Positions 982 through 61,534 of a DNA stretch of 64,000 nucleotides are shown here, piece by piece. Within the stretch, counting starts at the first letter, position 1, and every line of letters begins with the position of its first letter. The position numbers and the translations under genes were made by a program. Source of the DNA: Dehalococcoidia bacterium. GTDB lineage: Bacteria > Chloroflexota > Dehalococcoidia > DSTF01 > WHTK01. The notes under the pieces are model-generated. The model ran no database searches. It was not told the DNA's origin and saw nothing but the letters and a program-made list of their open reading frames with translations. Location of the stretch: the NCBI GenBank assembly GCA_965225815.1, contig CBDDBP010000006.1, positions 2,956 through 66,955 of the forward strand, written 5' to 3'.

Positions 982-1353
982 TTGGCGGCGATGAATCCTG
1001 AGGACGCGACACGGATGGTGGCGGAGGCGATGGAGGCGGGCGATCTCGATGGCGTCGTCGGTCTTTACGAGCCGAATGCCAGCCTGGTGATTGAGCCAGG
1101 CACGACGGTAACGGGCTCAGCAGCGATTCGCGAAGCGATGGCTGACTTCATCGGCTTGAAGCCGAAGCTGACCAGCGAACATCACCTTACGGTGGCGGCG
1201 GACGACCTGGCGTTGGTCTCGACCAACTGGAGCCTTGAGGGGACGGGGCCAGATGGCCAGCCGATGACGATGAGCGCGACGAGCACGGACGTGATGCGAC
1301 GCCAGGCTGACGGGTCGTGGAAGGTAATCATCGACAATCCGTTCGGCGTCTGA
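982..1353 (+). CDS. SnoaL-like / DUF4440 (NTF2-fold) protein
   Basis: 123-aa ORF. TTG start lies 6 nt after AGGAG (971-975). Sequence pattern (DLDGVVGLYEPNASLV...GSWKVIIDNPFG) is typical of the NTF2-like fold. Confidence 0.7.
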   Translation: MAAMNPEDATRMVAEAMEAGDLDGVVGLYEPNASLVIEPGTTVTGSAAIREAMADFIGLKPKLTSEHHLTVAADDLALVSTNWSLEGTGPDGQPMTMSATSTDVMRRQADGSWKVIIDNPFGV

Positions 1354-3453: not shown

Positions 3454-4716
3454 TCAGGCCGGCTGGGCTTCCAGCGCAGGGCCGTGGCCGTAGACGCGGC
3501 GGCCGGTGACGGCGAAGAGGCTGACGAGCATGATGGCGACGAAGAGCAGGCCCTCCCAGAAGAGGATGTTGGCGGCGCCGAACTGGTCGGCGAGGGAGCC
3601 GTTGAAGAGGTTGACGCTGGCCATCATGCCGCCGAGCGCAACGGTGTTGATGCTCGCGACGCGGCCACGGTACTCGTCGGCGGCAGTGGCCTGAGTGACG
3701 GCCTGGGTCATGGTCATGAACGCGGCCTGGGCGCCACCCATCAACGCGGCAGCGAAGATCGCAAGCCAGAGCACGGACGTCAGGGCGAGGATGGTCTGAC
3801 CAAGCCCGCTGAGGAGGCCTGTGAGGATGAGGACGTTGCCACGCGCCTTCGAGGTCTGGATGCCGGAGATGAAGATGCTGGCGATGAGTGCGCCGCCACC
3901 GACGCCGGCCAGCAAGGGGCCGAAACCTCCCTCGGAAACGCCTAGGCTGTTGTTGGCAAAGCCGGGCAGGAGCGATTCGAAGGCCATCGTGAGGCCGCAG
4001 TGGAAGATCGCCAGCAGGATCATGAAGCGGATGACGGGCATGCTGTAGACGTAGGCAACGCCGCCCGCGAAGCTCGCGAAGAAGCCTTCTGGGATCTTAT
4101 TCGGATCGGGACGCTTGGGCGTCAGCTTCATGATCTGGACGAGGCCGATGACGTAGAAGACGGTGCAGAGCAGGAAGGCTGACGCGGAGCCGAAGACGAG
4201 CAGCAAGGGCGTGACGATGCCGGGCCCGATGAGCCGGGAGCCGTGCTGCGTCGAAGCGTTGAGCGACAAGGCGTTTAGGAGCTTCTCGCGCGGGACGAGG
4301 GTGGCGGCCAGCGCTTGAGATGTGGGGAGCTGAGTCGCGCGGGCGATGCCGTTGACGACGGCGAGAGCGACGATCATCCAGACGTCGAGGACGCCAAAGA
4401 GGGCACCGAAGAAGAGCGCCACGTTTTGCAGCGCATTGAGTCCATAGCTAGCGGCGAGGATGTTGCGGCGGTCCATGCGGTCGGCGAGGACACCGACGAT
4501 GGGCGGGACGATGAACAGCGGGGCCATGGCGGCGAAGGTGGTGGCGCCAACCCAGGCGGAGGAGTTGGTCTGGCTGAAGACGAGCTCGCCGCGGGCGACG
4601 ATGAGGCCCCAGGCGGCGGCCTGGGCGAAGGCGTTGGCGGACCACATGGTGCGGAACTCAGGGTATTCGAGCGCGGCACCGTAGCGGCCGAGGAATTTCT
4701 TGGCTGTTGCATTCAC
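3454..4716 (-). CDS. MFS transporter (EntS/MFS_3-like)
   Basis: 420 aa with about 12 predicted TM segments. The motif GVLADRMDRRNIL is typical of the MFS loop 2-3. Confidence 0.9.
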   Translation of the reverse strand: MNATAKKFLGRYGAALEYPEFRTMWSANAFAQAAAWGLIVARGELVFSQTNSSAWVGATTFAAMAPLFIVPPIVGVLADRMDRRNILAASYGLNALQNVALFFGALFGVLDVWMIVALAVVNGIARATQLPTSQALAATLVPREKLLNALSLNASTQHGSRLIGPGIVTPLLLVFGSASAFLLCTVFYVIGLVQIMKLTPKRPDPNKIPEGFFASFAGGVAYVYSMPVIRFMILLAIFHCGLTMAFESLLPGFANNSLGVSEGGFGPLLAGVGGGALIASIFISGIQTSKARGNVLILTGLLSGLGQTILALTSVLWLAIFAAALMGGAQAAFMTMTQAVTQATAADEYRGRVASINTVALGGMMASVNLFNGSLADQFGAANILFWEGLLFVAIMLVSLFAVTGRRVYGHGPALEAQPA

Positions 4717-4762
4717 GTTAGCGTAAAAGTTACACGGTCGGACATGTGGGCTTCAAGCATAA

Positions 4763-5340
4763 CTGAAGCCGGGGACACCCCGCACCCCACTGAAGGCGGC
4801 GCCGAGGGCGTCTGGGTATAGGTCACGCCGGGGCGTTGAGGGCTTCGCGACCTGCACCCTTTCCTGGCGGGCGGGCTTGTGCGCTACGCCCTCTATTTAA
4901 CCTAGACCTGAGGGGAGACCCCTCAGACTCCCCCCGCAGGGGCTGCGCCCCTACTGACCCTGCTTGGATCGAGTAACGACAACATTCCAAAGTGAACGAC
5001 GGGGCGTTGAGGGATTTGCGACCTGCGCCCCTCCTGTCGGGCGGGCTTGTGCGCTTCGCCCTCTATTTAACCTAGACCTGAGGGGAGACCCCTCAGACTC
5101 CCCCCGCATGGGCTGCGCTCCCGCCATCCCTGGTGGCGCCGAGTCTGACGGAGTCGGTGGTGGACTTCGTTGGGGCGTTGACGGCTGCACTACCTGCGCC
5201 CCTCCTGCCGGGCGGGCTTGTGCGCTTCGCTTCCATGAGACGGTTCATCCGAAGGGAGATCCCTCGGGCTCCGCGCGCATGGGCCCTTCGGCGGAGCTCA
5301 GGATGCACTTCGCCCACGCTACCCTGCTTCTGATCGCTGA
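4763..5340. repeat. REP-like element cluster: one a-type hairpin plus 3 tandem units of 171 bp
   Basis: The string ggggcgttga starts at 4830, 5001 and 5172, giving a 171-bp period. Each unit carries gggcgggcttgtgcgcttcgcc and a perfect hairpin (ctgaggggagacccctcag at 4908-4926 and 5078-5096; ccgaagggagatccctcgg at 5249-5267). Confidence 0.85.
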
Positions 5341-5481
5341 GACCGAAGCTCCGACCCAGATCCGGAAGGCGGGCCACAGTGGGCTTGGAATGAACGAGGA
5401 GTTTTCGTCTAGATTCTCGGTGACCCTCAGGTCAAACTGACGCGGATCTTCAGCGGCCGATTTTTGGAAGGACGAACGACT

Positions 5482-6243
5482 ATGAAGCGACCCAACGTGC
5501 TGACGACGGGCGGCCTGTCTCACGAGGCGCGGCAAGCGCTGCTTGAGACGATAGAGCGGCGTACGGAGTTGCCCCTCCTGCTGCTCTCGATTGTCATGAT
5601 CCCGCTGCTGCTCGGGCCGTTCTTGTGGGAGATGTCGGCTACGGAAGAAGCGACGTTCTTCAGCCTCGACACGATGATCTGGGCGCTGTTTGCGGTCGAC
5701 TTGGGTACAAAGGTCCTCGTCGCTCCGGACCGTCTGGGCTATCTGCGGAGCCACTGGCTGGACGTACTCGTGGTTGCTGTTCCGTTCGCAAGGCCACTGA
5801 GGGTCGCGCGGATTTTGCTCTTCGGATCTCGCGCGATTGCCGGCGCGAAGCGGTTCGTTCAGCTTGATTTTCTGTTGGTTTATGCACTCGGATTGATCGT
5901 GATTTGCGCCACGCTTGTGACGGCCCTGGAGTCGGGGACTGACTCGACTATCGAAACGTTCCCGGACGCCCTCTGGTGGGCGGTGGTCACGATCACCACG
6001 GTCGGCTACGGCGACGTCGTGCCGCAGACGGCGGAGGGGAAAGCGATAGGAATGGTGCTGATGCTCGGGGGAATCGGGATCTTTGGAGCGCTTACGGCGA
6101 ATCTGGCATCCCTCTTCGTCCGAAGCGATTCGTCACTGCCTACTCTCGACCAAGGGCTCCAGGAGCAACTCCAGGCCCTGCACCAGGAGCTTGGTCTGCT
6201 GAGAGAGGAACTATCGGCGGCAGGCCGGACTCAAACGGAGTGA
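5482..6243 (+). CDS. Voltage-gated potassium channel (ion transport protein)
   Basis: Selectivity filter TTVGYGD. S4-like segment ARPLRVARILLFGSR. GGAAGGA lies 9 nt upstream of the ATG at 5482, so the track start 5464 (TTG) is less likely. Confidence 0.9.
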   Translation: MKRPNVLTTGGLSHEARQALLETIERRTELPLLLLSIVMIPLLLGPFLWEMSATEEATFFSLDTMIWALFAVDLGTKVLVAPDRLGYLRSHWLDVLVVAVPFARPLRVARILLFGSRAIAGAKRFVQLDFLLVYALGLIVICATLVTALESGTDSTIETFPDALWWAVVTITTVGYGDVVPQTAEGKAIGMVLMLGGIGIFGALTANLASLFVRSDSSLPTLDQGLQEQLQALHQELGLLREELSAAGRTQTE

Positions 6244-12065: not shown

Positions 12066-12155
12066 CGGAGACCTCACCGTGATGCGATTGTGGCAAGGCG
12101 TTCGGCTCGCTAACGTGGGGTGGCCTCGCAACGCCGATGAGTCAGGAGATGAGAC

Positions 12156-13109
12156 GTGACGATTGATATTCATGCGCACTACCACCCGCGGGCATATCTT
12201 GCGGCGGCTTCGAAGGCGATGGGGCGGGAGATCGGGCCGTTTGTGCCGCACCCGGATACGGACGACGCGGAGCACATCGAGACGCGGCTGCGGGAGATGG
12301 CGGAGGCGGGCGTGACGCTGCAGGTGCTGTCGCCGGCGGCGGGCCGGGCGCCGTATGGCGAGGAGGAGTCGACTTCGGTCGAGGCGGCGCGGCTGTGCAA
12401 CGACCTGACGGCGGCGTTCGTGGCGCGCTATCCGGACCGCTTCAAGGCATTCGTGACGCTGCCGCTGCCGCACATCGAGGCGTCGGTTGCGGAGCTAAAG
12501 CGGGCGATGGAGCTACCGGGGATGATCGGGTTGAACCTGCACATCTCGGCGCAGGAACGGTCGGTGGCGGAGGACGACTTCCTGCCGATTTACGAGGAGA
12601 TGAACCGCCGCAAGGGGCTGATCTTCTACCACCCGTGCGGCAACGGGATCTGCTCGCCGATGATCATGGACTGGGGCCTGGGTGGGGCGATGGGCACGTC
12701 TTTGGAGGACGCGGCGATCGTGGCGCACCTGATCAAGAAGCAGATAGCTTGGAAGTTTCCTGACATCAAGATTGTAGTGCCGCACCTGGGTGGGCCGATC
12801 GCGATGCTGCTGGACCGTCTGAACAATCAGTACTCGATGAAGGCGCTGGGGCTGCCGGAGCCGCCGAAGGACACGGCGCGACGCTTCTACTACGACACGG
12901 TGGGGCACGCGTCGCACGCGGCGCTGACCTGCGCGGTGATGGCGTACGGGGCGGACCACGTGCTGGTGGGGAGTGACTACCCGGTGCTGCATTCGTGGGA
13001 GACATACGAGCGGACGATCAACTGGCCGCGCGACGTTGACCTGCCAGCGGGGGCGGTGGAGCAGATCATGGAGAAGACGGTGCTTACGGTTTTGGGGGAT
13101 CGAGTCTGA
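12156..13109 (+). CDS. Amidohydrolase_2 (ACMSD-like) family hydrolase/decarboxylase
   Basis: Sequence starts IDIHAHYHP and ends ...VLVGSDYPV. GTG start follows AGGAG. Confidence 0.9.
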   Translation: MTIDIHAHYHPRAYLAAASKAMGREIGPFVPHPDTDDAEHIETRLREMAEAGVTLQVLSPAAGRAPYGEEESTSVEAARLCNDLTAAFVARYPDRFKAFVTLPLPHIEASVAELKRAMELPGMIGLNLHISAQERSVAEDDFLPIYEEMNRRKGLIFYHPCGNGICSPMIMDWGLGGAMGTSLEDAAIVAHLIKKQIAWKFPDIKIVVPHLGGPIAMLLDRLNNQYSMKALGLPEPPKDTARRFYYDTVGHASHAALTCAVMAYGADHVLVGSDYPVLHSWETYERTINWPRDVDLPAGAVEQIMEKTVLTVLGDRV

Positions 13110-13384: not shown

Positions 13385-13410
13385 GGACGGAGCTGAAGCT
13401 TCGTCTCTAC
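13385..13410 (-). repeat. REP copy 4
   Basis: ggacggagctgaagcttcgtct+ctac, with 1 mismatch in the stem. Confidence 0.75.
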
Positions 13411-16536: not shown

Positions 16537-16845
16537 CTAGCCGAGCACTTCGGTGGCGCAGCGGGAGGCGTTCACGCCGTTGGGCCAGCCGGCGTAGAAG
16601 GTGACGTGGGTAATCATCTCCGCGAGCTCGTCTTTGGTGACGCCGTTCTCGACGGCGCGGACGAGGTGTCCCTTGAGCTCGTCGGTGCGGTAGAGGGCGG
16701 TGAGGACGGCGCAGGTGATCAGGCTACGGTCGCGCTTGGAGAGCTCGGGACGCTCCCAGATGTCGCCGAAGAGGACGCTGTCACGGAGTTCACCGAGCTT
16801 GGGGACAAAGGCGTAGTTGCCGGCGGGACGTGGTGGGATTGTCAT
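16537..16845 (-). CDS. Carboxymuconolactone decarboxylase (CMD/AhpD-like) family protein
   Basis: 102 aa. Sequence RDRSLITCAVLTALYRTDELKGHLVRAVENGVTKDELAEMITHVTFYAGWP. Confidence 0.85.
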   Translation of the reverse strand: MTIPPRPAGNYAFVPKLGELRDSVLFGDIWERPELSKRDRSLITCAVLTALYRTDELKGHLVRAVENGVTKDELAEMITHVTFYAGWPNGVNASRCATEVLG

Positions 16846-19908: not shown

Positions 19909-20766
19909 CTAGGGGAGGGGGGCGATGACGACGTTGCAGCGGCTGGCGGTTGGGCCGCAGATGATTTCGAAGGCGGCGCGGGAGACGTCGAGATGGTTTC
20001 CGACGCAGCCAGGGCAGGAGTCCTGGCGGACGCCGATGATGCAGCTCGTGACGATACCGGTGGCGGCGTCGATGCCGCAAACGCCGAGCTGGGTGCCGCA
20101 AGGCCAGTCCTCGTAGCGGTCCGGGCTGACGGCGATGATCGTGACGTTTTCGGGGTCGTAAACACCGTAGCCGTTGCAGCCCAAAGGTAGGCCTTCGAAG
20201 AAGTCGGCGTAGTACGTCACTTCGCCGAAGAGAAGGCCGGGGTCGATAGGCACCGGAGTTGGGGAGAGGGTCGGCGTTGGCGGTACGGGAGTGGGGGGAA
20301 TTGGTGTGGCTGTTGGCGGGACCAGCGTTGGCGTCGGCTGTGGCGGCGTGGGAGTAGGGGGTACGGGCGTGGAGGTTGGTGGAACCGAGGTTGGTGTCGG
20401 CGGTACGGGTGTTGGCGGCGGTTGGGTCGGTGTCGGGGGCAACGGAGTCGCGGTCGGCGGTTCGACGGCGGCGTTGAGCGATTGGGGTGTTTCGGTGGAT
20501 TCGAGGGTTGGCGTCGGCGTAGGCTCCGCGGTGGCGGTGGTAGTGGGCGATGCGGTAGCTGAGGGCGTGGCGGTGACATCCGCGAGGGCGCGGTTCTGCT
20601 GAGAGCGAGCGCCGACGAGGGAGCTGCCGACTACATCAGCCGAAACGCTCTGGGGCGAATCCGACGGGCCATCGCCCGGCAAGGCGAAACTGGCCGCCAT
20701 GTAGCCAGCGGTAGACATCGCCGTGAAGGCGATGAGGGCGAGGAGGAGGGCCTTGGGCAGGGTCAC
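19909..20766 (-). CDS. Secreted protein with Pro/Thr-rich linker and RlpA-like double-psi beta-barrel C-domain
   Basis: N-terminal TM/signal segment, then a PT-rich linker of about 100 aa (PTPTQPPPTPVPPTPT...), then a Cys-rich C-domain YYADFFEGLPLGCNGYG...HLDVSRAAF. Confidence 0.65.
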   Translation of the reverse strand: MTLPKALLLALIAFTAMSTAGYMAASFALPGDGPSDSPQSVSADVVGSSLVGARSQQNRALADVTATPSATASPTTTATAEPTPTPTLESTETPQSLNAAVEPPTATPLPPTPTQPPPTPVPPTPTSVPPTSTPVPPTPTPPQPTPTLVPPTATPIPPTPVPPTPTLSPTPVPIDPGLLFGEVTYYADFFEGLPLGCNGYGVYDPENVTIIAVSPDRYEDWPCGTQLGVCGIDAATGIVTSCIIGVRQDSCPGCVGNHLDVSRAAFEIICGPTASRCNVVIAPLP

Positions 20767-20851
20767 CGGAGGCCTCGTTTACGTAACGGCACGACAGACA
20801 TGATAGCAAGCCTGGCCAGCCCTCTATACTGGGCGTCGTCAGGAGGAGCCC

Positions 20852-21388
20852 ATGACTGCGAACTGGAACGACGTGCCGGCAGCGATGCCGAAGGACCCGG
20901 ATTATGCGATGCCGCCGCGGGACGACGGCCGCCAGGGGCCGTATTTCATGGCTGAGGTGACGCTACAGGAAGACCATCTCAAGACGGGAACCGTGGGTGG
21001 TTTCGCGGTGCGTTGTGACGAAGGCGCGCGGTTGGGCGGCACGGACACGGCGCCGTCGCCCCTCAGCTACTTCACGATCGCCGTCGGGTTTTGACTGGCG
21101 ACGCAGCTCGTGCAGGTTGCACGGGGTCTAAAAATCGAATTTCGCAACGTGAATATCAAGGTTCACGGTCTGTTCTCTCGGGAAGGCTCCGTCTTGGGCG
21201 GCGACATTGAGTCCTTCGCGGATTCGCTCACGACGGAGCTGTCGTTGGACAGTGACGAGCCGCCGGAGCGAGTGACGCAGTTGGTGAAGCTGGCCGAGGC
21301 GAGCTGCTACACGATGGCGGCGCTTCGCAAGCCGACGCCGGTAGAGCTGCAGGTTACGGTGAACGGCGAGCGCTTCGAACTGGAGTAG
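20852..21388 (+). CDS. OsmC/Ohr-family peroxiredoxin-like protein with in-frame UGA (candidate selenoprotein)
   Basis: ORFs 20852..21094 and 21110..21388 share a frame. The TGA at 21092-21094 occupies the first conserved Cys position (SPLSYFTIAVGF-U-LATQLV). The second conserved Cys is present (AEASCYTMAAL). Confidence 0.7.
21107..21125 (+). promoter_or_regulatory. SECIS-like stem-loop
   Basis: CUCGUGCA-GGU-UGCACGGG has an 8-bp stem including one G-U pair. It starts 15 nt after the UGA and has a GGU apex. Confidence 0.5.
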
Positions 21389-28694: not shown

Positions 28695-29945
28695 CTGTAC
28701 CGAGGCTGGTGGATAGTCGTTACGGCCTACCTGGCGCAGTTCAATGCGACGGGAGCCAGCGGCTGGGTCTTTGGCGTGATGATCCTGCCGATGCAGGACG
28801 ACCTGGGCTGGAGCCGCAGCGCTATCGTCGGTGTGCTGACGGTGGAGCGCCTGGTCGGCGGGGTGTTTGGGGCGTGGCTGGGTCCGCTGGTCGACCGTCA
28901 CGGGACGAGAATCCTGATGACCGGGAGCGCAGTCCTGGCCGGGGTTTGCATGCTGACGCTTTCGCAGGTGCAGGACGCATGGCAGCCGTATGTGATCTGG
29001 GGTTTGTTCGGGCTGGCGCTGCCGGGACTCTCGACGCTGGCGCCGGTGGCGATGGTGTCGGCGTGGTTCGTGCGCAAGCGGGCCGTGGCGATCATGACCT
29101 ACACATTCGGCGGCGCGACGGCCGGCCTGGTGCTGGCGCCGGCGATGGCGGCGGTGGCGAACACCTGGGGTTGGCGAACCGTGTGGGTGCTGATGGGGTG
29201 CTTCCTGCTGGCGGTTGGGCCAGTCGCCTGGACGGTGGTGCGGCGGCGCCCGGAGGACGTGGGCCTGGCGCCGGACGGCGATCCGCCGCGACCGACACCG
29301 GTAGAGACGCGACGCGCTGAGGCCGCAACCGGGCTGCCGGAGCCGGAGTGGACGGCGCGGCAGGTGGTGAGAAGCGCGACGTTCTGGCTGCTGACGGCGG
29401 GATTCACCCTGACGATGCTGCCAGCGTCGTCGATCTTCATCCACATGACGGCTTACGTTCAGAGCAAGGGCTTTTCGCTGGAAGAGGGCGCGGCGGCGGT
29501 CAGCATCTACGGGTTCGGCGCGATGGCGGGACGCTTCGTCTGGGGTTTCACGGTGGGCCGAGCGGGAATTCGCCGGGCGCTGGTGCTGTGGGGACTGCTC
29601 TACGGCACCAGCATCATCATCTACGCGCTGCCGACCTCGATCATCACGATATACGCGGCGACGGTGTTCCTGGGCATTACGGTGGCGGGTTCGTTGCAGT
29701 TCAGGGCGCAGACATTCCCGGATTACTTCGGGCGACATATCGTCGGGACGCTGGTGGGGTATTCGTTCGCGATCGGGACGGTGGCAGCGGCGACTGCACC
29801 GCTACTGGTGGCGTTCGCGTTCGACCTGACGGGGAACTACACGGCGATTTTCATCACGTTCGGGGCGTGTTGCCTCGCGGCCAGCTTCGGCTTCGCGTTA
29901 GCGCGACCCTGGATGTCGGAACAGGCGATAGCGGCGGGTCGATAG
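28695..29945 (+). CDS. MFS transporter (oxalate/formate antiporter-like)
   Basis: The frame is open from 28680 and has no ATG/GTG/TTG before the conserved YRGWWIV. CTG at 28695 lies 5-6 nt after GGGAGGAG. The track ORF begins only at the internal ATG 28776. Confidence 0.8.
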   Translation: MYRGWWIVVTAYLAQFNATGASGWVFGVMILPMQDDLGWSRSAIVGVLTVERLVGGVFGAWLGPLVDRHGTRILMTGSAVLAGVCMLTLSQVQDAWQPYVIWGLFGLALPGLSTLAPVAMVSAWFVRKRAVAIMTYTFGGATAGLVLAPAMAAVANTWGWRTVWVLMGCFLLAVGPVAWTVVRRRPEDVGLAPDGDPPRPTPVETRRAEAATGLPEPEWTARQVVRSATFWLLTAGFTLTMLPASSIFIHMTAYVQSKGFSLEEGAAAVSIYGFGAMAGRFVWGFTVGRAGIRRALVLWGLLYGTSIIIYALPTSIITIYAATVFLGITVAGSLQFRAQTFPDYFGRHIVGTLVGYSFAIGTVAAATAPLLVAFAFDLTGNYTAIFITFGACCLAASFGFALARPWMSEQAIAAGR

Positions 29946-32086: not shown

Positions 32087-33367
32087 ATGCTGAGCGAACG
32101 CGAAAACGACCTTATCACGCACATTGGCGCTGGGACGCCGATGGGCGAGCTGTACCGGCGGTTCTGGCTGCCCGTGCTGGTGGCGGACGAGCTGCCGACG
32201 CCGGACTGCACGCCGGTGCGGATGACGGTGCTGGGCGAGCGGCTGGTGGCGTTCCGGGACACGGAAGGGCGCGTCGGGGTGTTGGACGAGCGTTGTCCGC
32301 ATCGCATGGCGAGCCTGTTCTGGGGCCGAAACGAGGAAGGCGGGCTGCGCTGCGCCTATCACGGCTGGAAGTATGACGTGGAGGGGCGCTGCCTTGACGT
32401 GCCGAACACGCCGGAGGGGGAGAGCTTTCGCGAGAAAGTGGAGCCGTTCGCGGTGTATCCGGCGGTTGAGATGGGCGGGCTGATCTGGGCCTACATGGGG
32501 CCGCCGGAGCAGAAGCCGGAGGTGCCGGACTACGAACTGAACGCGGTGCCGGCGGCGAACCGTTACATCTCGAAGATATTCATCAACGGGAACTGGATGC
32601 AGGGGCTTGAGGGCGACATCGATTCGAGCCACGTGAGCTTCCTGCACGGCCGAGCCGACAGTGCCGTCGCCGATCTGGCGAAGATGGGCCGGATGAACGC
32701 GACGATGTTCCAGGACAAGGCGCCACGATGGTCGTTCAAGGAGACCGGCTACGGGATCATGCTGGCGGCCCAGCGCACCGGCCCGGCCGACACGCTGTAC
32801 TGGCGGGTTAACCAGTGGCTGATGCCTTCATTCACGATGATCGCGGCAAAGCCTGGGACGCCGATCCATTTCCAGGTACGGGTTCCGGTGGATGACGAGC
32901 ACCAGATCTACTATCGGATCATCTGGCACCCGGAGCGGGCGTTGACGGAGTCGGAGCTGTACGCGGCGAAAGAGTCTGGCGTGAACTTTCCGGAGATCAT
33001 TCCGGGGACGTTCTATCCGCGAGAGAATCGGGAGAACAACTTCCTGATCGACCGGGCGCTGCAGAAGAGCGGCACTTCGTTCACGGGGATCAAGTCGATC
33101 CCGGCGCAGGACTGGGCGATGCAGGAGGACCAGGGCGGGCCGATTACGAATCGCTCGATGGAGCATCTGGTGAGCGCGGACGGCGCGATTATCCAGGTGC
33201 GGCAGCGTTTGCTGAAGGCGCTGCGTGAGCTTCAGGAAGGCAGCGAGCCGTTGGAGCCGGCGGTGGTCGGTGAGGACGGCCGGGTGCGGCCGATCGACAT
33301 CGAGCTGGCGAGCGACGTGGACGTTTGGGACGGCGCGGCAGATTACCTGTACGCGAAGACCTGGTAA
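32087..33367 (+). CDS. Rieske [2Fe-2S] oxygenase alpha subunit (phthalate-family, alpha-only type)
   Basis: Rieske motif CPHRMASLFWGRNEEGGLRCAYHGWKY. Mononuclear Fe motif NWMQGLEGDIDSSHVSFLH. Confidence 0.9.
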   Translation: MLSERENDLITHIGAGTPMGELYRRFWLPVLVADELPTPDCTPVRMTVLGERLVAFRDTEGRVGVLDERCPHRMASLFWGRNEEGGLRCAYHGWKYDVEGRCLDVPNTPEGESFREKVEPFAVYPAVEMGGLIWAYMGPPEQKPEVPDYELNAVPAANRYISKIFINGNWMQGLEGDIDSSHVSFLHGRADSAVADLAKMGRMNATMFQDKAPRWSFKETGYGIMLAAQRTGPADTLYWRVNQWLMPSFTMIAAKPGTPIHFQVRVPVDDEHQIYYRIIWHPERALTESELYAAKESGVNFPEIIPGTFYPRENRENNFLIDRALQKSGTSFTGIKSIPAQDWAMQEDQGGPITNRSMEHLVSADGAIIQVRQRLLKALRELQEGSEPLEPAVVGEDGRVRPIDIELASDVDVWDGAADYLYAKTW

Positions 33368-35896: not shown

Positions 35897-37738
35897 TCAA
35901 TTATCGACTGGTTGGCGTCCCAGGTGAAGGTTGTCGCGTTGCTGTTGAGGGTGCGCGAGGGACGCGAACGTCGTCGTCAGCGGGGTGGGTAGGCGGGCGA
36001 GGGGCGAGGAGACGTCGCGGAAGGTGGCGTCGAGGGAGGTTATGACCTCGACGACGGCGGGTTTGCCGACCTCGACGACGGCGGGTTTGCCAGGCGAGGG
36101 CTTTGTTGACGGTTTGGGTGATGTCGGCGGGGTCTTCGACGCGGAAGGCTTCGCAGCCCATGGCGCGCGTGATCGCGCTGTAGTCGAAGGCGTGGAAGCT
36201 TGAGGCGATGGGGCGGTCGCCCTGGCCGTGGCGCACCCAGCCGAGGGCCGAGTTGTTCAAGACGACGGTGACGATGTTGATACCCTCCTCGATGGCGGTG
36301 AGGAGGCCGTTCAGGGCGATGGCGAAGCCGCCGTCGCCGCAGACGGCGATGACGCCGCGATCGGGGTGAACCAGCTTGGCGGCGAGCGCGGCGGGGACGG
36401 CGTAGCCCATGCCGCCGACGGCGGCGGGCTGGAGGTACTCCATGCTGCCGCGGGTCTGGAAGTGATGCATCATGAACAGCCGATTCTCGCCGGCGTCGCA
36501 GGTGATGATGCAGTCGTCCGGCGCGGCCTTGCCGAGGTCGGCGATGAGGCGCTGGGGCAGGATGGGCCGGGCGGCGGATTCGGACTCAGGGACGTGGAAG
36601 GAAGCTAACTTACGGTGGGCTTCTGTCACTTCCAGGGGTCCGTTGACGCGGCCGGGGAGCTCTGCCTGACGGACGGCGTCGACGAGCTGACCGAGGATTG
36701 CTGTCGCATCGCCGATGAGGGTGTGCTGCACCGGAAAGGACCAGCCGGCGTGGCGCGGCTCGACGTCGATTTGGAGGAAGACCTGTCGCTCGGGGTCGAG
36801 CAGGGCCGGGTTCTCGTTGGCGGTGTCGGTGGGGCCGAGCTTGGTGCCGACGGCGAGGATGAGGTCGGCGTCGGCGATGGTTGCGTTGGCGGCTTCGAGG
36901 CCGAAGTTGCCGAAGACACCGAGGGCAAGGGGATGATTCTCCGGGAAGGTGGCTTTGCCAGATGCCGTGGTGGCGACGGGCGTGCCGAGGAGCTCGGCGA
37001 GCTCGAGCAGTTGCGATTGGGCGGCGCTCATACGGACGCCGTTGCCGGCGACGATAACGGGCTTCGAGGCTCGGGCCAGGGCTTGGACCGCATCTGAGAT
37101 GTCGCCGGGGTCGGCGGTTTCGCGCTGCGAGGGGAGGTAGTGCTCCGTGGCGTAGAGGCGGGGCGTCGTGTCGGGGCCTACGGTGGCCGAGAGTGCAGCG
37201 CTGTGGAAGAGAAGTGCTACGGGGGGCCGGGTTGTCCCGTGGTGGCGTGCTTGAGGGCGAGCTGAGTGCTCTGGACGGCGGAAGCGGCGTCGCGGGCGAC
37301 GAAGACCTCCTTGGTGTAACCACGAATCGTGTCGCGGGCGTCCCAGCTACCGAAGTCGCCGGTGCCAGACTGATAGGGGCCGTGCTGGGTGAAGGGGTGG
37401 CCGTCGCTGAGGTCGGCGATGACGAGCATTGGGCTGCCGGCGAGATAGGCCTCGACGATGCCCATGCCGGAGTTGGTCAGCATGAAGGCGGCCTGACCCA
37501 TGGCGACGGCAGGGCGTCCGGTGAGGCGGCCGTGGGCGTCGGCCATGACGGCGGCGAGACCCTCTTCGCGGGCGAGGACGGTTCGGATGGTCGAGCGGCG
37601 GTCGTAGAGGGCGTCGTAGATCGGGATCGTGCGGCCGCCGGGCATGCCGAAGACGAAATTGACGCCGGCCTCTTCGAGGACCTGGACGATGGCCTGGGGG
37701 ACGGAGACGGTTGCAGTGAGAAGGCGTCTGGCGGTCAT
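35897..37738 (-). pseudogene. Thiamine-diphosphate enzyme (acetolactate synthase/benzoylformate decarboxylase-like), frame-disrupted
   Basis: The N-terminal domain (37217..37738) ends at a G6 run (37221-37226). The middle and PP domains continue in another frame (GDGGFAIALNGL). There is a second frame break at 36089-36093, and a 24-bp tandem duplication at 36044-36091. Confidence 0.6.
35903..36039. repeat. Diverged direct repeat, copy I
   Basis: See copy II. On the minus strand it encodes SLDATFRDVSSPLA and the YD fragment SRTLNSNATTFTWDANQSI. Confidence 0.75.
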
Positions 37739-40982: not shown

Positions 40983-42278
40983 ATGATCGATACTCCGGCG
41001 ACCTGGCAGAGCCGCCTGCCGTTCTTTTACGGATGGGCGGTTGTGGCCGTCGCTCTATTCACGACGTTCTTTGGCATCGGCTTGATCTGGTCCGCGAGCA
41101 TTTTCGCGAACTCGATGACGGAGGAGCTGGATTGGAGTAACTCGGCGTTCTTCTTCGCGCTGAGTTTGCGTGGCTGGACGGGAATCGTAATCGCGCCGAT
41201 CGTCGGGCCTTACCTGGATCGTCAGCATGGAATTCGCGCCCTGGCGATCGGCGGTGGGCTGATCAACGTGGCGGCGCTGGTACTGATCAGCCAGGTACAG
41301 GAGGAGTGGCAGTTCGTCCTGCTGTTCGGCGTTGTAGGCGGGGTGGCCCAGGCGTTGCAAATGGGCGCCACGGTGATCATCCCAAAGTGGTTCGTGCGAC
41401 GGCGAGGCATGGCGGTATCGCTGGCTTCGGCCGGCGGCGGACTGGCGGCGCTGACGTTGCCGACGCTTCTCGTCGCTGTCGAGAGCGCGCTGAGCTGGCG
41501 CAGCGGGTGGCTGTTGCTGGCGCTGCTGGCGTTGCTTTTCTCGACCCTCCCGGCGCTGCTGCTGCACCGTCAGCCAGAAGACGTGGGCCTACTGCCGGAT
41601 GGAGACGGCAAGAAGGGCGAGAGTCAATCACAGGCGCCCAGGCGCGAGGAGCCCAGCTTTACGCGAAGTGAGGCGATCCGGACTCCTACGTTCTGGATGC
41701 TGATGGTCGCTGTAGCGTTTGGGGCGCTGGCCGCGAACGGTCTTCCGGCCAACATGACGAACCTGTTCGTCGACCGCGGCCTCGAACTCGACACGGCGGC
41801 GACGGCGCTGGTCTTTTACGGTCTGGCCTCGTTCATGGCGAAGTTCTTCTGGGGCTGGCTGGCGAACAAGTACGAGCTGCGACTCGTGATGCTGTTCTTG
41901 ACGGGTTATGGGATGCTGGCGGTGCCGACGATCTTGCTGATTCCGTCTTCCGTGGGTACGCCGGCCATGGTCTACGGGGCGCTGGTTGGCTTCTACGTTG
42001 GGGCGTACATCCCGCTGCACTTCCTAGTCTGGGCGGCATACTTCGGGCGGGCGCACGTCGGGGCGATCAGCGGGGTGGGACGGCCGTTGGGGGCGATGCT
42101 GCTCGCCGGTGGGCCGTTCGTGATCGCGGCGGCGCGAGACGTTTCGGGGACTTATACGGCCGGCATCCTGATTGCAGCGGCGGGGATTGCGGCGGCGTTC
42201 GCCTGTCTATATTTCGTGCGAACTCCAACCCGGCCGGATCGAATGGCGGAGGCAGAGGAACAACTGACCACGGCTTGA
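40983..42278 (+). CDS. MFS transporter
   Basis: 431 aa, 12 TM, FYGWAVV N-terminus as in the neighbouring MFS paralogues. Confidence 0.9.
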   Translation: MIDTPATWQSRLPFFYGWAVVAVALFTTFFGIGLIWSASIFANSMTEELDWSNSAFFFALSLRGWTGIVIAPIVGPYLDRQHGIRALAIGGGLINVAALVLISQVQEEWQFVLLFGVVGGVAQALQMGATVIIPKWFVRRRGMAVSLASAGGGLAALTLPTLLVAVESALSWRSGWLLLALLALLFSTLPALLLHRQPEDVGLLPDGDGKKGESQSQAPRREEPSFTRSEAIRTPTFWMLMVAVAFGALAANGLPANMTNLFVDRGLELDTAATALVFYGLASFMAKFFWGWLANKYELRLVMLFLTGYGMLAVPTILLIPSSVGTPAMVYGALVGFYVGAYIPLHFLVWAAYFGRAHVGAISGVGRPLGAMLLAGGPFVIAAARDVSGTYTAGILIAAAGIAAAFACLYFVRTPTRPDRMAEAEEQLTTA

Positions 42279-43639: not shown

Positions 43640-44977
43640 CTAGTCCCCGACTGACGGAATGGCGCCCACGGGCCCGTCCGTGGGCACCTGCGTCGTGCGC
43701 GCGGCGTGCCAGTCGGCCAGGGCTTCGTGCCAGACGACTTCGGCCGGCAGGACGGTAGAGCAGGAGCGGCGCCGGTAGGCTGTCGGGTCTTGAGAGCCGG
43801 GAGGAGGCGTACCGGCCTCGCGGAGCGCTCTGGCGGCGCGGATCAGCTTGCGCCGGGTCATGATGATCATCGTGTCGGTCGTGCCGAGATGCTCCTTATG
43901 CCTGGGGTTGATGGCGCCCATGCCGACGGTCATCGCCACGTCCTGGAGGCGGATGGTGGGGATGCCGGTGAAGTTCATCGTGCGCTGAACCTCGCGGTCC
44001 ATGAGGTAGTCGTTGGCGTCGTCGGCGACGGGCCACCAGTCGGGGAAGGGCTTGCCGCCCTGGGCGGGCTTCATGGGCCCCATGCCGTGCTCCTCGGGGA
44101 GCTTGCGGACGTTCTGGTTGAGGACACGGGGGCCGTCGAAGGCTTTCGTGGGGTGCCAGCGCAGGCCCCAGTGCATCGTGGTGTGGTCGTCGATTGGGGT
44201 GTACATGTGCTGGGGTACGGTGCCGTCCGGGGAGCCCGGGAACATGGTGAATACGGGAAAGAGGTACTGCGTCGTACGCCAGTAGGTGCGGCTGGGACCG
44301 TCCTTACGGCTGGCGCCGTAGTAGATGCCGTAGTCGGTGTCGATGATGTCGAGGTGGGGCGCCTTGTCGGGGTGGTAGACGCCGTAGATGTCGGGCTGAT
44401 CGGCCTCGAGGCGGGCGTGGAGGAGGAAGAGGTGGGAGGTGTCGATGTCACCTTCGAGGGCCTGCATCCAGTTGCATTCATAGATGCCCTTGTACTGGTG
44501 GTGGCGCTGCTCTTCGGGGACGTCGCACCATTCAAAACGGGGTAGGCCAGGAGGAGCGGCCTGGTCGGGACCCATGTAGGCCCAGATGATGCCACCTTGC
44601 TCGGCGGCGGCGTAGGCATTGGCCCTGACCTTGGTCTTGAAATTGCTCTCGGCGGGTTCGGAGGGCATGTCGACGCAGGCGCCGGAGACGTCGTACTTCC
44701 AGCCGTGGTAGACGCAGCGCAGGCCTTCTTCCTCATTGCGGCCGAAGAAGAGCGAGGCGCCGCGGTGGGGGCAGGCTTCGGTAATGAGGCCGACCTCGCC
44801 ACTGGAGGTACGGTAGGCGATCATGTTTTCGCCGAGGAGCCGGACGCGCTGAGGCGGGCCGTCATTCTCGAGCTCCCAGCCGTAGAGGAGGGGCAGCCAG
44901 TAGCGACGCATGAGGTCGCCCATGGGCGTGCCAGGTCCGACGCGGCTAAGGGTTTGGTTGTCTTGGATAGAGAGCAT
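43640..44977 (-). CDS. Rieske [2Fe-2S] oxygenase alpha subunit
   Basis: Motifs CPHRGASLFFGRNEEEGLRCVYHGWKY and CNWMQALEGDIDTSHLFLLH. Confidence 0.9.
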   Translation of the reverse strand: MLSIQDNQTLSRVGPGTPMGDLMRRYWLPLLYGWELENDGPPQRVRLLGENMIAYRTSSGEVGLITEACPHRGASLFFGRNEEEGLRCVYHGWKYDVSGACVDMPSEPAESNFKTKVRANAYAAAEQGGIIWAYMGPDQAAPPGLPRFEWCDVPEEQRHHQYKGIYECNWMQALEGDIDTSHLFLLHARLEADQPDIYGVYHPDKAPHLDIIDTDYGIYYGASRKDGPSRTYWRTTQYLFPVFTMFPGSPDGTVPQHMYTPIDDHTTMHWGLRWHPTKAFDGPRVLNQNVRKLPEEHGMGPMKPAQGGKPFPDWWPVADDANDYLMDREVQRTMNFTGIPTIRLQDVAMTVGMGAINPRHKEHLGTTDTMIIMTRRKLIRAARALREAGTPPPGSQDPTAYRRRSCSTVLPAEVVWHEALADWHAARTTQVPTDGPVGAIPSVGD

Positions 44978-46887: not shown

Positions 46888-48258
46888 CTACGAGATGACC
46901 GGCTCGAAGAGCTCTTCGGGCTGGTGCTCGATGAAGGCTGCCTGGAGGCTTTCGGTGGCCTTACGCCAGTCAACGGACCGAGGCAGGATGACGCCACCAG
47001 AGCGGTAGTGGTAGATCGTCGGGTCGTCGACGCCGGGCGGCAGCGTGCCGTTGTCGGCCAGCGCTTTCGCTGCCTTGATGAGGCAGCGGCGGGTGCGTAT
47101 GACCATCGCGTCGCTGGTGCCGAGGTGCTCGGCGGTACGTTCGGAGATGGTACCCATGCTCTCGGTGATGGCCTGGTCCTGAGTGTGAATGCCGGCGATT
47201 CCGGTGTAACTGGTGCTGTTGCTCTGAGCCTCGCGGTCGATCTGGTAGTCGTTCGCGCGGTTCTGAGTGAGGTGGAACTTGCCGGTCCAGTGGGACTCGT
47301 CCGGCAGGTACTGGAAGCCGGGCCGCTGACGCACGGGATTTGAGGCGTCGGCGCCCTTCTTCGCGGCTTCGGCGTCGCCCTGGCCGGCGCTGGCGTTATT
47401 GAAGGCGAGCGTGCTGGGCACGGCGAAGCTCCAGAACATCATGTGGTCGTCGTCGATCGGGACCCAGGCGCGAACCAGGATCTGCTGACCGAGCAATCCG
47501 GTGGGGATCATGGTGTAGAAGGGGAAGAGGAAGTGGGCGACGCGCCAGTAGTAGGTGTCCGCTTCGGCGGGCCGGTAGGTGCCGTAGGAGGTACCGAACT
47601 CGGTGTCGACTACGTCATAGCGGGGCGCCTTGTCGGCGATAGTGTAGTAGTCGAAGGACTTGGGCCTGGCTTTCTCGAGCGTGTTTGCTCCGAGGTGGAG
47701 GAAGGCGAGGTGGCTGGTGTCGATGTCGCCTTCGAGACCCTGGACCCAGTTGCAGTCGCGCAGGGCCTTTTCTACCTGGATGCCCTTCTCAGGAACCATG
47801 TTGGGCTCGATGTCCGGCAGCGGCGGCAGGTCGTTTCGGCTGCGGGTGCCCATGTAGGCCCAGACGACGCCATTGCGCTCGTGGGTGGGGTAGGCGTGGG
47901 CGCGAACCTTGCCCTTGAAGTTGGACTCGGCGGGTTCGGACGGCATGTCGACACAGTCGCCCGCGACGTCGTACTTCCAGCCGTGGTAGACGCAGCGCAG
48001 GCCTTCCTCTTCGTTGCGGCCGAAGAAGAGAGACGCGCCACGGTGGGGGCAGGCATCCGCTACGAGGCCAACGTCGCCGCTGGTGGTGCGGAAGCCTATG
48101 AGATTTTCGCTGAGGATTCGGACGCGCTGAGGAGGAGAGTCGGGGGCTGCCAGCTCGCTGGACATGAAAACGGGAATCCAGTATTGGCGAATGACGTCGC
48201 CCATGGGCGTCCCGGGTCCGACGCGGCAGAGAATGTCATTGTCTTGCTTGCTTAACAT
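46888..48258 (-). CDS. Rieske [2Fe-2S] oxygenase alpha subunit
   Basis: Motifs CPHRGASLFFGRNEEEGLRCVYHGWKY and CNWVQGLEGDIDTSHLAFLH. The second ATG (48258) is preceded by GGAGG. Confidence 0.9.
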   Translation of the reverse strand: MLSKQDNDILCRVGPGTPMGDVIRQYWIPVFMSSELAAPDSPPQRVRILSENLIGFRTTSGDVGLVADACPHRGASLFFGRNEEEGLRCVYHGWKYDVAGDCVDMPSEPAESNFKGKVRAHAYPTHERNGVVWAYMGTRSRNDLPPLPDIEPNMVPEKGIQVEKALRDCNWVQGLEGDIDTSHLAFLHLGANTLEKARPKSFDYYTIADKAPRYDVVDTEFGTSYGTYRPAEADTYYWRVAHFLFPFYTMIPTGLLGQQILVRAWVPIDDDHMMFWSFAVPSTLAFNNASAGQGDAEAAKKGADASNPVRQRPGFQYLPDESHWTGKFHLTQNRANDYQIDREAQSNSTSYTGIAGIHTQDQAITESMGTISERTAEHLGTSDAMVIRTRRCLIKAAKALADNGTLPPGVDDPTIYHYRSGGVILPRSVDWRKATESLQAAFIEHQPEELFEPVIS

Positions 48259-48423
48259 TCCGACCTCCATACGATTGGCTTCACATTGGCATAGATTCTA
48301 CTGCAATTGGCGGCAGGTTGCTTAGTCAACTTAAGGGATCGAAGGGATTACTGGGCGCGAACCGGACTCGGCTTGAGTCCTATAATCCTGTAACACAGTT
48401 AGCGCAGCGGTAGGAGGGGTCTC

Positions 48424-50002: not shown

Positions 50003-51544
50003 ATGACAACAAATGAATCTGTAGAGACCTCTACGCCGGGAACAAACGGAACCAACGGTAAAGTTGCCGCGCTTGGGCCGGGCGCCATGACGGGTGCTCG
50101 CTACATTGAGAGCCTGCGCGACGGGCGCGAGGTGTGGCTGGACGGCAAGCGTATTGACGACGTCACGACGCATCCAGCGTTCCGGGACATGATCAAGTCG
50201 CTTGCTGACGTCTACGACCAGCAGAACAACGAATACCGCGACGAGATGACGTATGTCGATCCGGAAAGCGGCGTGAGGACGAGTCTTTCGTGGCTGCTCG
50301 CGACAAACTTTGAAGAATCGGCCTTGAAGCGCGTCAACAGCAAGTTGTGGAACAAACTGACCTGGGGCCAGCTGGGCCGCAGCCCTGACATCCTGGCGCC
50401 GTTCATCACCAACATGGTGCCGCGTCGTCACCAGTTCTCAGAGTTCAAGAACGACCACTGCGACTTCGGCGAGAACATCATCAACTACTACCGCTACTGC
50501 CGGGATAACGACCTGTTCCTGACACACGCCCTGGGCGACCCGCAGGTCGACCGCAGCACGCAGCCTCAAAACGAACGCCGGGCGACGCCGGAGGACGAAG
50601 AGATCGCACTGCACGTGGTGGAGGAGACGGCGGAGGGCGTCATCGTCAGCGGCGGCAAGCAGCTTTCGACGGCGGCGGTGCACAGCCACGAGACTTACGT
50701 TTCGCTTTCCGCGACGTTCTTTGCGCGCAACGACCCGCGCTTCGTGCTGGCTTTCTCGATTCCGACAAACTCCAAAGGGTTGAAGATCCTGGCGCGGGAG
50801 CCGGTGGGCCGCTGGTTCGGAAGCTGGGGGCACCCGCTACAGGGATTGGACGAGCAGGACTGCATGCTGTTCTTTGACCGCGTGCTGGTGCCCTGGGACC
50901 GGCTCTTCTTCCTATATGACTCACCTAGCCGGGTGTTTACAGCGGCGGGTCCAGGCGGCGCCACAGCCAACTTTGCGGGTTGGGCAAACCTGGAGCGCGC
51001 GCTGTTCCGCTATCGTTTGATGACGGCCGTGGCAACGATGATCACGGAGGCTATCGGTGTCAACGAGTACCGCGAGGTGAACTCGAAGCTGGGCGAGATG
51101 GCTACGAACTGCGAAATGTTGCATTTGGCGATGGACGGCCTGGAGCATTCAGGTAAGCGTTTCGGAACGCCGGCCGGGCCGATCGGCATCTGGATGGCCC
51201 AGACGACCTGGCGGATGACGGAACTGCTGCGTGAGCTGTGTGGCTCGGGTATCGTGATGCAGCCGAGTGAGAATGACCTGGCGAGTCCGGAGCTGCGGCC
51301 CTTCCTGGAGCAGTTCATGCGCGGCAAAGGCGTGGATGTTGAGTACAAGTCACGGCTGTTCCGCCTGGCGCATGACCTGGCGATGTCGTCCTTCGGCATG
51401 CGGCAGGACATCTACGAGTACTGGCACGGCGGCGACCCAAGCCGAAACCGGATTAACCTGCTGCGTGGTTACGACCAGTCAGACGTCATCGAGCAGATCA
51501 AGGAGATGATCTCGAAGCCGTTGGCGCACGGCGAGGTCGAGTAG
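50003..51544 (+). CDS. 4-hydroxyphenylacetate 3-monooxygenase oxygenase component (HpaB) family flavin monooxygenase
   Basis: 513 aa. N-terminal pattern MTGARYIESLRDGREVWLDGKRIDDVTTHPAF. Confidence 0.85.
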   Translation: MTTNESVETSTPGTNGTNGKVAALGPGAMTGARYIESLRDGREVWLDGKRIDDVTTHPAFRDMIKSLADVYDQQNNEYRDEMTYVDPESGVRTSLSWLLATNFEESALKRVNSKLWNKLTWGQLGRSPDILAPFITNMVPRRHQFSEFKNDHCDFGENIINYYRYCRDNDLFLTHALGDPQVDRSTQPQNERRATPEDEEIALHVVEETAEGVIVSGGKQLSTAAVHSHETYVSLSATFFARNDPRFVLAFSIPTNSKGLKILAREPVGRWFGSWGHPLQGLDEQDCMLFFDRVLVPWDRLFFLYDSPSRVFTAAGPGGATANFAGWANLERALFRYRLMTAVATMITEAIGVNEYREVNSKLGEMATNCEMLHLAMDGLEHSGKRFGTPAGPIGIWMAQTTWRMTELLRELCGSGIVMQPSENDLASPELRPFLEQFMRGKGVDVEYKSRLFRLAHDLAMSSFGMRQDIYEYWHGGDPSRNRINLLRGYDQSDVIEQIKEMISKPLAHGEVE

Positions 51545-56672: not shown

Positions 56673-56687
56673 GTAGGAGCTTTCCAT
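54801..56687 (-). CDS. ABC transporter substrate-binding protein, family 5 (peptide/opine/nickel type), Tat signal plus lipobox
   Basis: RVSRRRALKVGGATAAAAAFLAACGG followed by an SBP_bac_5-like body. 628 aa. Confidence 0.9.
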   Translation of the reverse strand: MESSYWNKTLSNRVSRRRALKVGGATAAAAAFLAACGGDDDDGGTTGGTTGGGSTGGGATASGLLTTIEDTYSQAVRGGELVDFMTAEPRSTDPVNPQANLNTLIGETMNTLLTEVPGHLEASAYALTGAVAESWEATPDQITFKIRPGAKWHNIDPVNGREVDSEDVLWSLGHHQELAPLSPLVWNATSGGGFAGTPTAPDSMTVVVPLSEPLAYAANWFASFGSVTGQMLMYPKEAGGAYDPRQAVIGTGPFFVSQHENSVDFTVTRNPEYWDQDHALIDSIHLPILPEYATRNAQLEAGAVHYARDNTNIARATDILTLKKDRPDLLLRQQETRPAASVMTFGTQGENVPYFDERVRRAISMSFDRDLSIDVTYNSEEFAAAGLPVESYHNSHLAYRDSFFGGGFWLDPQSSEFGENAKNLQFNPDEAKKLLTAAGYPDGFEVKFGYPNAPQFDRGNVVEPFFFYLQQIGLTVIDNGYEDYTQGYIPLDRDASGVFEGMGYHSVTGGITSTISPISALVAEHHPASGVTFHGYSEGGGTGKTGDPVVIEILNKAKFETDTNAARELAIEAQRHLAGKMWSLNEPGTASAFALAWPAVKNLGVWNSAAVVWRKYQIWLDKTQKPFA

Positions 56688-61321: not shown

Positions 61322-61534
61322 GTGCTGCATCCCTTCTTGTGTGGTATTCCAGGCTCCGCCCCGGGTTTCTCCGAACCGCCGTGTGGTGGTCCGGAGTCCT
61401 GTTGGAGTGAGGGGGCCGGCCGACGGGACGAGTCCAAACCTCTTCCTATCGGCCATTGAGGCCCACCTCGACCTAGTCTCTAATGCCTCCTTAAACGCCG
61501 CCCGTTGAAGAGACGGCGATAGTCTAACAGAAGG

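Follow-up and report, generated by a model that had tools for sequence, protein, structure and literature searches.

The 64-kb stretch of DNA that we analysed (64,000 nucleotides, hereafter the window) very probably carries, as judged from sequence comparisons, a genuine selenocysteine (Sec)-encoding gene for an OsmC-like selenoprotein of 178 residues (20852..21388) in the genome of a soil Chloroflexota bacterium with Dehalococcoidia-like affinities. The gene consists of a single reading frame, its joined product belongs to the OsmC family, the in-frame UGA falls in an alignment column that is occupied by either Sec or Cys, and the codon is followed by a hairpin that is conserved and covaries among the homologues. 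The family, the position of the Sec residue, the redox motif and the type of SECIS element are all already known and curated, and our result is an annotation fix rather than a discovery. Public gene calls present the gene as two “hypothetical” fragments, and the correction also applies to more than 100 fragmented homologues. Joining the fragments restores a redox enzyme to the gene inventories of soil Chloroflexota, and recognition of the gene as one for a selenoprotein would flag the source genome as a Sec decoder.

A Single Reading Frame Interrupted by UGA

Two open reading frames (ORFs) in the mechanically generated list, 20852..21094 (80 aa) and 21110..21388 (92 aa), share one frame and are separated by the TGA at 21092-21094 and five sense codons (L-A-T-Q-L). 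That the two ORFs represent one frame split in this manner was a claim of the initial annotation, and it is confirmed by both the sequence and its translation: the frame extends from the ATG at 20852 to the TAG at 21386-21388, and the TGA at 21092-21094 is its sole interruption. The second conserved Cys, which had been described as intact, is indeed present as Cys152, encoded by the TGC at 21305-21307. Gene callers cut the gene into pieces of 80 aa and 79-92 aa, and the orthologues are cut alike. The features of the gene are the following:

20841..20848, plus strand, Shine-Dalgarno-like sequence AGGAGGAG, separated by 3 nt from the downstream ATG at 20852
20852..21388, plus strand, single coding sequence for a predicted OsmC-related selenoprotein (NF041052 / PF02566), 178 codons plus the TAG stop
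21092..21094, plus strand, UGA codon 81, predicted to be read as selenocysteine; opens the U-L-A-T (UxxT) redox motif
21101..21103, plus strand, Thr84 codon ACG, the T of the UxxT motif
21107..21125, plus strand, candidate bacterial SECIS-type hairpin within the coding sequence, with the stem at 21107-21114/21118-21125 and the apical loop GGU at 21115-21117
21305..21307, plus strand, Cys152 codon TGC, second conserved (resolving-type) Cys, aligned to the Cys in the VCPY motif of Ohr

The sequence AGGAGGAG is a strong Shine-Dalgarno (SD) motif and the sole ribosome-binding site for the whole gene. Directly upstream, in divergent orientation, is an ORF for 285 aa (19909..20766, minus strand), whose product contains long repeats of Pro and Thr (PTPTPV...) and is rich in Cys in its C-terminal part; no Pfam match is on record for it.

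Family Membership of the Joined Product

For searches against protein families, codon 81 of the joined 178-aa product was represented by a Cys placeholder. The Pfam OsmC model PF02566 has a match that spans the TGA, from residue 63 to residue 166 (46.4 bits against a cut-off of 27.5, E = 5.5e-12), which bears out the OsmC architecture previously suggested for the joined product. When the halves were compared individually with the same model, the N-terminal half had no match and the C-terminal half reached 21.5 bits, below the cut-off. The curated NCBIfam model NF041052, “OsmC-related (seleno)protein,” also called OsmC_like_Se, gave 151.3 bits (cut-off 95, E = 1.7e-44) with a match to positions 6-144 of the 144 in the profile. 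With the NCBIfam Ohr equivalog, the joined product obtained a score of 24 bits as compared to a cut-off of 240.

The OsmC-like protein (COG1765, PF02566) with the redox motif UxxT belongs to the 15 selenoprotein families that a 2005 study of the Sargasso Sea was the first to report (PMC1088965). It was first described by Zhang, Fomenko and Gladyshev from marine plankton with 3 sequences (PMC1088965), and the family is still catalogued in reviews from 2022 and 2026. The motif in the window, F-U-L-A-T, fits the published UxxT (PMC1088965), and by its sequence we assign the gene to this already described and curated family of OsmC-related selenoproteins. The gene resembles the family of 2005 in its domain, the position of Sec, the UxxT motif, the presence of Cys in the non-Sec homologues and, just 3' of the UGA, a SECIS hairpin whose small apical loop contains a G. 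It differs in that it stems from a soil-type Chloroflexota genome rather than from marine plankton, that Sec forms far exceed Cys forms (114 to 9) among the loci retrieved here, and that some metagenome-assembled genomes (MAGs) contain two Sec paralogues. These differences concern distribution, not kind.

The UGA Codon Occupies a Conserved Sec/Cys Column

Relatives of the protein were drawn from a collection of 5.8 billion proteins, after which one genome per species and the JGI metagenomes were scanned. With one exception, the 20 best-scoring relatives (57-64% identical; the 19 are P0001-P0018 and P0020) consist of the C-terminal half only, with lengths of 97-103 aa. The full-length relatives (P0019, P0021-P0028), mostly of 167-171 aa and one of 208 aa, are 38-41% identical and have a Cys at the UGA column. 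Both C81 and C152 are invariant in the alignment of the Cys homologues (alignment A1; P0019-P0028), and the residues aligned with U81 and C152 in the solved structures 3cje (OsmC-like) and 3eer (Ohr) are the two Cys of each. The Cys/Sec column that was to be expected at residue 81 was thereby found in the homologue alignment, as an invariant Cys in the full-length homologues.

The DNA around the truncated relatives displayed the same arrangement every time: an upstream ORF, a TGA, 15 nt and then the called ORF. In these relatives, protein conservation is about 60-65% before the TGA as well as after it (…APSPLGYFTVAVGF, the TGA and then LATQLVQVAR…). The scans of the genomes, one per species, and of the JGI metagenomes added 109 loci, and over all loci the 123 homologous sites are TGA in 114 cases, TGC in 7 and TGT in 2. 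The TGA is conserved down to about 37% protein identity, and L010, L011 and L012, which are separate public assemblies for the source organism, all have it as well.

A few of the homologous loci have features of their own. One metagenomic orthologue (L087, around position 1223) contains a second in-frame TGA nine codons past the Sec codon (…FATQIVQVA, TGA, VFH…) and a weakened stem, GCAUGA, and is possibly a decaying copy or the result of a read error. Each of the closest MAGs was seen to contain a pair of Sec OsmC-like paralogues with a mutual identity of about 43%, in one case on the same contig (L013 and L017, CAVYAY010000003.1) and in the other within the same MAG (L014 and L019, DASTLN01). 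Each of these paralogues has its own, differently sequenced SECIS hairpin; the window has one copy of the gene.

A Conserved and Covarying Hairpin Downstream of the UGA

The hairpin CUCGUGCA-GGU-UGCACGGG at 21107-21125 is present in both the minimum free energy (MFE) and the centroid fold. It has a perfectly paired stem of 8 bp, which starts 12 nt past the UGA, and a loop that starts 20 nt past the UGA; alternatively, it can be read as a stem of 7 bp with the loop AGGUU. The element overlaps codons L86-R91. The initial annotation had placed it fifteen nt after the UGA; the hairpin and its coordinates hold, but the distance is 12 nt when measured from the last base of the UGA, and 15 nt when counted from its U.

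Of all 1734 TGA triplets in the window, 19 (1.1%) are followed at this distance by a hairpin that has 8 bp or more and a G in its loop. The folding energy of the 65-nt region was not unusual for its GC content when compared to shuffled sequences (z = 0.19), and the significance of the hairpin is due to comparative evidence and not to its folding energy. Searches against Rfam, of the whole window at the gathering threshold and of 21040-21220 at E-values up to 10, identified nothing relevant; the single match, a chance hit to a plant-virus pseudoknot on the other strand, was rejected.

A hairpin of 4-10 bp with a loop that starts 19-21 nt past the UGA is present in every one of the 82 distinct UGA sequences. 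The apical loop in these homologues almost always contains G or GU (GGU, AGGUG, GUA, GUC and GGCU, among others). Sequence L059 has a stem mismatch that defeats the simple hairpin scan, and its MFE fold gives the same hairpin. No hairpin was observed at the corresponding place in the 9 sequences with a Cys codon, and the 37-nt segment folds with a mean MFE of -11.8 kcal/mol in the UGA forms versus -3.8 kcal/mol in the Cys forms. The difference can be followed in close pairs of Sec and Cys forms within the Anaerolineae-type subfamily, where LISHLSQVAAKRK with UGA has the hairpin UGUCGCA-GGU-UGCGGCA, whereas LISHITQVANKKK with UGC or UGU has none.

The stems vary by subfamily while the pairing is kept, as in CUCGUGC/GCACGAG, UUGCGGG/CCCGCAG, UGCCCG/CGGGCA, CUCGCUC/GAGCGAG, UGUCGCA/UGCGGCA and CUGACGCG/CGCGUCAG. 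In an alignment of 48 sequences, six of the seven stem pairs have compensatory changes on both sides, and the covariation score is 0.409, as compared to 0.133 ± 0.018 for shuffled alignments (none of 500 reached 0.409) and at most 0.148 for slid registers; four sequences that MAFFT had put out of structural register were counted as unpaired. Furthermore, the codons in the stem are near-invariant at synonymous sites in 33 distinct orthologues with an identical peptide context (Ala GCA in 33/33, Gln CAG in 33/33 and Val GTG in 32/33), whereas flanking four-fold degenerate codons, including those for Ala, vary freely in the same orthologues. Where positions in the stem region vary, they either belong to the loop (GTG/GTT) or leave the pairing intact (CGA/CGG opposite U). 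The SECIS candidate put forward in the initial annotation is in this way strengthened: the hairpin goes with each of the UGA forms and with none of the Cys forms, and six of seven pairs covary. The comparative set, with 82 UGA forms that have a covarying hairpin and 9 Cys forms that do not, provides a clean natural experiment on the rules for bacterial SECIS elements, and it brings no new principle.

Comparison With the fdhF SECIS Element of E. coli

The resemblance to the SECIS element of the E. coli fdhF gene was already noted in the initial annotation. We compared a 46-nt fdhF element (TGACACGGCCCATCGGTTGCAGGTCTGCACC...) to E. coli genomes, in 5419 of 5426 of which it had 100% identity to fdhF, and both the apex given in that annotation and the likeness proved correct. 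The apex in fdhF is UGCA-GGUC-UGCA, with a loop 18 nt past the UGA, and the apex in the window is GUGCA-GGU-UGCAC, with a loop 20 nt past the UGA. Both elements are part of the coding sequence and follow the UGA immediately on its 3' side, and the two have the apex UGCAGGU...UGCA in common. The distances are also similar, with a stem at about 11 nt and a loop at about 18 nt from the UGA in elements of the fdhF type, and at 12 and 20 nt in the window.

There are also differences. A bulged U in the upper stem of the fdhF element is a contact for SelB, and this bulged U is absent from the window's hairpin, whose loop counts three or five nucleotides, depending on the reading of the stem, as compared to four in fdhF. 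Other subfamilies of the OsmC-like genes differ from fdhF in the stem (GCCCG/CGGGC, GCGGG/CCCGC and CGCUC/GAGCG). Variant SECIS elements are usual in bacteria outside the enterobacteria. By analogy with fdhF, we interpret the hairpin in the window as a variant bacterial SECIS and a candidate SelB-binding element.

Genetic Code and Alternative Explanations

One alternative is that the UGA is read through without Sec-tRNA(Sec), either by near-cognate decoding as Trp or Cys or after a lineage-wide reassignment of the codon, and that the hairpin acts without SelB. We regard this as very unlikely. In its favor, the Sec machinery was not found in the 64-kb window and 870 kb of related loci. ARAGORN identified no tRNA-Sec in the window, where it identified no tRNA at all, or in 55 related loci; tblastn searches with SelA, SelB and SelD from E. 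coli had no match in the window and 121 loci (870 kb); and no sel genes were recorded in Pfam scans of 30 window proteins or among the pre-annotated window proteins. Furthermore, the window makes unusually little use of TGA as a stop. The GC content is 63.5%, and the robust coding-like ORFs (n = 47) end with TAA in 21 cases, TAG in 21 and TGA in 5, which makes TGA the rarest stop codon.

On the other hand, TGA is the termination codon of five credible genes:

982..1353, 3454..4716 (minus strand), 5464..6243, 12156..13109 and 40983..42278, TGA-terminated genes with lengths typical of their families

These encode a SnoaL-like protein, two MFS proteins, an ion-channel protein and an Amidohydro_2 protein. 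The in-frame extensions past the TGA are short in four of them (3 to 30 codons), and the extension of 3454..4716 is long but does not look like coding sequence; none of the five has a SECIS-like hairpin. No other TGA in the window lies in frame with a coding signal on both sides, and the remaining candidates resemble antisense frames of real genes. Nor did relaxed scans of gene termini, or inspection of the CMD-family gene at 16537..16845, yield any further in-frame TGA candidate window-wide. Because five genes end with TGA and no other TGA interrupts a coding frame, UGA is a stop codon in the window and the site in the OsmC-like gene is a local exception. This upholds the view that the gene represents local recoding and not a changed genetic code, with the qualification that TGA had been called an ordinary stop in many genes: an ordinary stop it is, but in five of the 47 robust ORFs rather than in many. 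Read-through without Sec is also at odds with the main stop codon of the closest MAG, which is TGA (15 TGA, 5 TAA and 7 TAG in two of its loci, L013 and L017), with the location of the site at a redox Cys position and with the curation of the family as selenoproteins.

The depletion of UGA as a stop could in principle reflect a shift in the termination balance of the lineage, for example through a reduced dependence on RF2, that would favor efficient decoding of UGA as Sec or constitute an early stage in the reassignment of the codon, but we consider such a shift very unlikely, and the depletion may equally be a local or sampling effect. If the shift were true, the OsmC-like gene would be one visible beneficiary.

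The TGA might also be a nonsense mutation, a lesion in a pseudogene or a sequencing or assembly error in an ordinary OsmC gene of the Cys type. Gene callers do stop at the TGA, and frameshift-like splits are seen in other genes of the source assembly, but an identical TGA is present in three assemblies of the organism and at 114 of 123 homologous sites, in many samples and phyla, which excludes both sequencing error and pseudogenization. Both halves are moreover under purifying selection, and the covarying hairpin is tied to the TGA. This explanation is effectively refuted by conservation, and we give it next to no credence. It is just as hard to believe that the locus encodes two small proteins, of 80 aa and of about 92 aa from the GTG at 21110, that form a split OsmC fold with the hairpin serving in translational coupling or attenuation: both ORFs exist mechanically and the C-terminal half alone gives its weak OsmC match of 21.5 bits, but the GTG has no SD-like motif before it (the preceding sequence is TTTGACTGGCGACGCAGCTC) and falls within the stem of the hairpin, the LATQL segment between the TGA and the GTG is conserved as protein and is preceded by a column that is Cys in the full-length homologues, the cut would sever the active-site helix and remove the catalytic residue, and several subfamilies have no start codon at the corresponding place.

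Proposed Decoding and Putative Redox Chemistry

In the reading that we favor, a Sec-encoding gene, the ribosome would start at the ATG at 20852 and encounter the UGA at 21092, where the hairpin at 21107-21125, located 12 nt downstream and with a G in its loop, would recruit SelB-GTP-Sec-tRNA(Sec). Delivery of this complex at UGA is the established mode of Sec decoding in bacteria. Sec would then be inserted at codon 81 and translation would run on to the TAG at 21386. The source organism is accordingly predicted to possess sel machinery, and the occurrence of Sec-decoding organisms among Chloroflexi is documented, as are unusual forms of tRNA-Sec in that group, including one with an 8/4 acceptor/T-stem.

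In the protein, Sec81 in the UxxT motif would stand in for the first Cys, at the peroxidatic position, of the OsmC/Ohr fold. By homology with Ohr and OsmC, Sec81 may attack a peroxide or another oxidant, after which Cys152 would resolve the intermediate into a selenenylsulfide that could be reduced by a thiol donor. The reaction would be a thiol- or selenol-dependent redox process, and the reduction of hydroperoxides, as the putative substrates, is the most plausible. The peroxidase cycle of Sec81 and Cys152, which we infer by analogy, is the weakest step of the proposal.

The protein resembles the Ohr, OsmC and YhfA thiol peroxidases in its fold family and in having two conserved redox residues at equal positions. 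The two Cys of Ohr, one in helix alpha-1 and the other in the VCPY motif, correspond in the alignment to 3eer to Sec81 and to C152 in A-S-C-Y-T, with the difference that the first residue is Cys in the Ohr type and Sec here. The best solved relative is 3cje, an “OsmC-like protein” from structural genomics (E = 1.8e-07), in which both Cys align with U81 and C152; it is, however, a Cys form with low identity and no assigned function. An N-terminal extension of about 30 residues (MPKDPxYxxPPRD) distinguishes the protein from the Cys homologues of about 169 aa, in which it is missing.

In Ohr, the catalytic Glu is situated 10 residues before the peroxidatic Cys, in an NPE motif. The corresponding residue here is Leu71, in SPL rather than NPE, and it is invariant in the alignment of the Cys homologues. 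Arginines are present at R54 and R60, and the alignments to the PDB structures begin after the N-terminal beta-sheet region that holds the catalytic Arg of Ohr. An Arg and a Glu are neighbors of the peroxidatic Cys in Ohr, whereas the YhfA/COG1765 branch is without both and is biochemically uncharacterized (PMC8945050). It is this branch that the protein resembles in having Leu71 in place of Glu. Since the Glu is missing, the score to the Ohr equivalog is low and the protein is YhfA/COG1765-like, we file the gene under the family of OsmC-related selenoproteins and not under Ohr or OsmC proper; the candidate assignment to Ohr was rejected for lack of the catalytic Glu and the score of 24 against 240 bits. 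Likewise, because Leu71 replaces the catalytic Glu of Ohr, the peroxidase chemistry is only an analogy, and a function as peroxidase is best regarded as putative. The location of the UGA at the “peroxidatic Cys position,” as initially described, is correct insofar as the column is an invariant Cys that aligns with the Cys of 3cje and 3eer, but the term “peroxidatic” applies by homology only, given the change from Glu to Leu71.

Organism and Genomic Context

The region of the OsmC-like gene is identical to a part of a 3.49-Mb contig (ENA ERZ28763718 ctg125285; 3,490,112 bp; L010). The nearest genomes are Chloroflexota MAGs, namely “uncultured Chloroflexia” MFD04944.bin.2.8 with 90% identity and Dehalococcoidia bacterium SMAG_U2898 with 87% identity. 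More distant Sec forms were identified in other Chloroflexota, in an Entotheonellaceae MAG and in a Thermodesulfobacteriota MAG. The gene neighborhoods differ among the orthologues. In two Dehalococcoidia MAGs, a tRNA-Cys(GCA) gene is located about 200-300 nt upstream of the Sec-OsmC-like gene (L023 9751..9826 and L024 9715..9790), a proximity that is probably coincidental.

In four of the related loci (L004-L007), the gene beside the OsmC-like orthologue belongs to the UGSC family (PF24696) and is split into 102 and 461 aa. In L004, where the gene is located at 4506..6230 on the minus strand, the split is at an in-frame TGA in H-U-G-G-C-T, which corresponds to the UxxC position of another catalogued selenoprotein family. 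Judging from this motif, the gene is probably another mis-split selenoprotein gene, and together with the record of Sec users among Chloroflexi it lends indirect support to the predicted sel machinery.

In the window, the OsmC-like gene is located in a region for the catabolism of aromatic compounds and organic acids, with amidohydrolases, FAH, ADH, PEP mutase/ICL, MaoC, ACAD, five Rieske/LigXa oxygenases and HpaB. The five LigXa_C-type oxygenase genes are located at 32087..33367, 43640..44977 (minus strand), 46888..48270 (minus strand), 61535..62977 (minus strand) and 63035..63985 (minus strand); four of them have a Rieske domain, and 63035..63985 matched LigXa_C only. They are accompanied by HpaB (50003..51544), two Amidohydro_2 genes, FAH, MaoC, ACAD, SDRs, a MarR regulator and MFS transporters. 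The LigXa_C genes, HpaB and their companions constitute a dense catabolic island for aromatic or lignin-derived compounds.

A gene for a thiamine-pyrophosphate enzyme in the window is split into 37217..37738 (minus strand; TPP_enzyme_N, 173 aa) and 35901..37031 (minus strand; TPP_M and TPP_C, 376 aa). The halves are in different frames with a gap of about 185 nt, and a frameshift, a pseudogene or an error of long-read assembly accounts for the split. Three tandem paralogues of SBP_bac_5 solute-binding proteins are all encoded on the minus strand (54801..56687, 57094..59013 and 59435..61456), and the first and third have an identical stretch in common, with identical antisense peptides at 54967 and 59601.

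The contig L010 and the window are identical over the OsmC-like gene and differ elsewhere, roughly at window positions 12000-13400 and 28776..29945, with an offset that shifts by about 259 nt close to the first Amidohydro_2 gene. One MFS gene is split into 180 and 228 aa in L010 and is intact, with 389 aa, in the window. These differences suggest that the two are different polishing or assembly versions.
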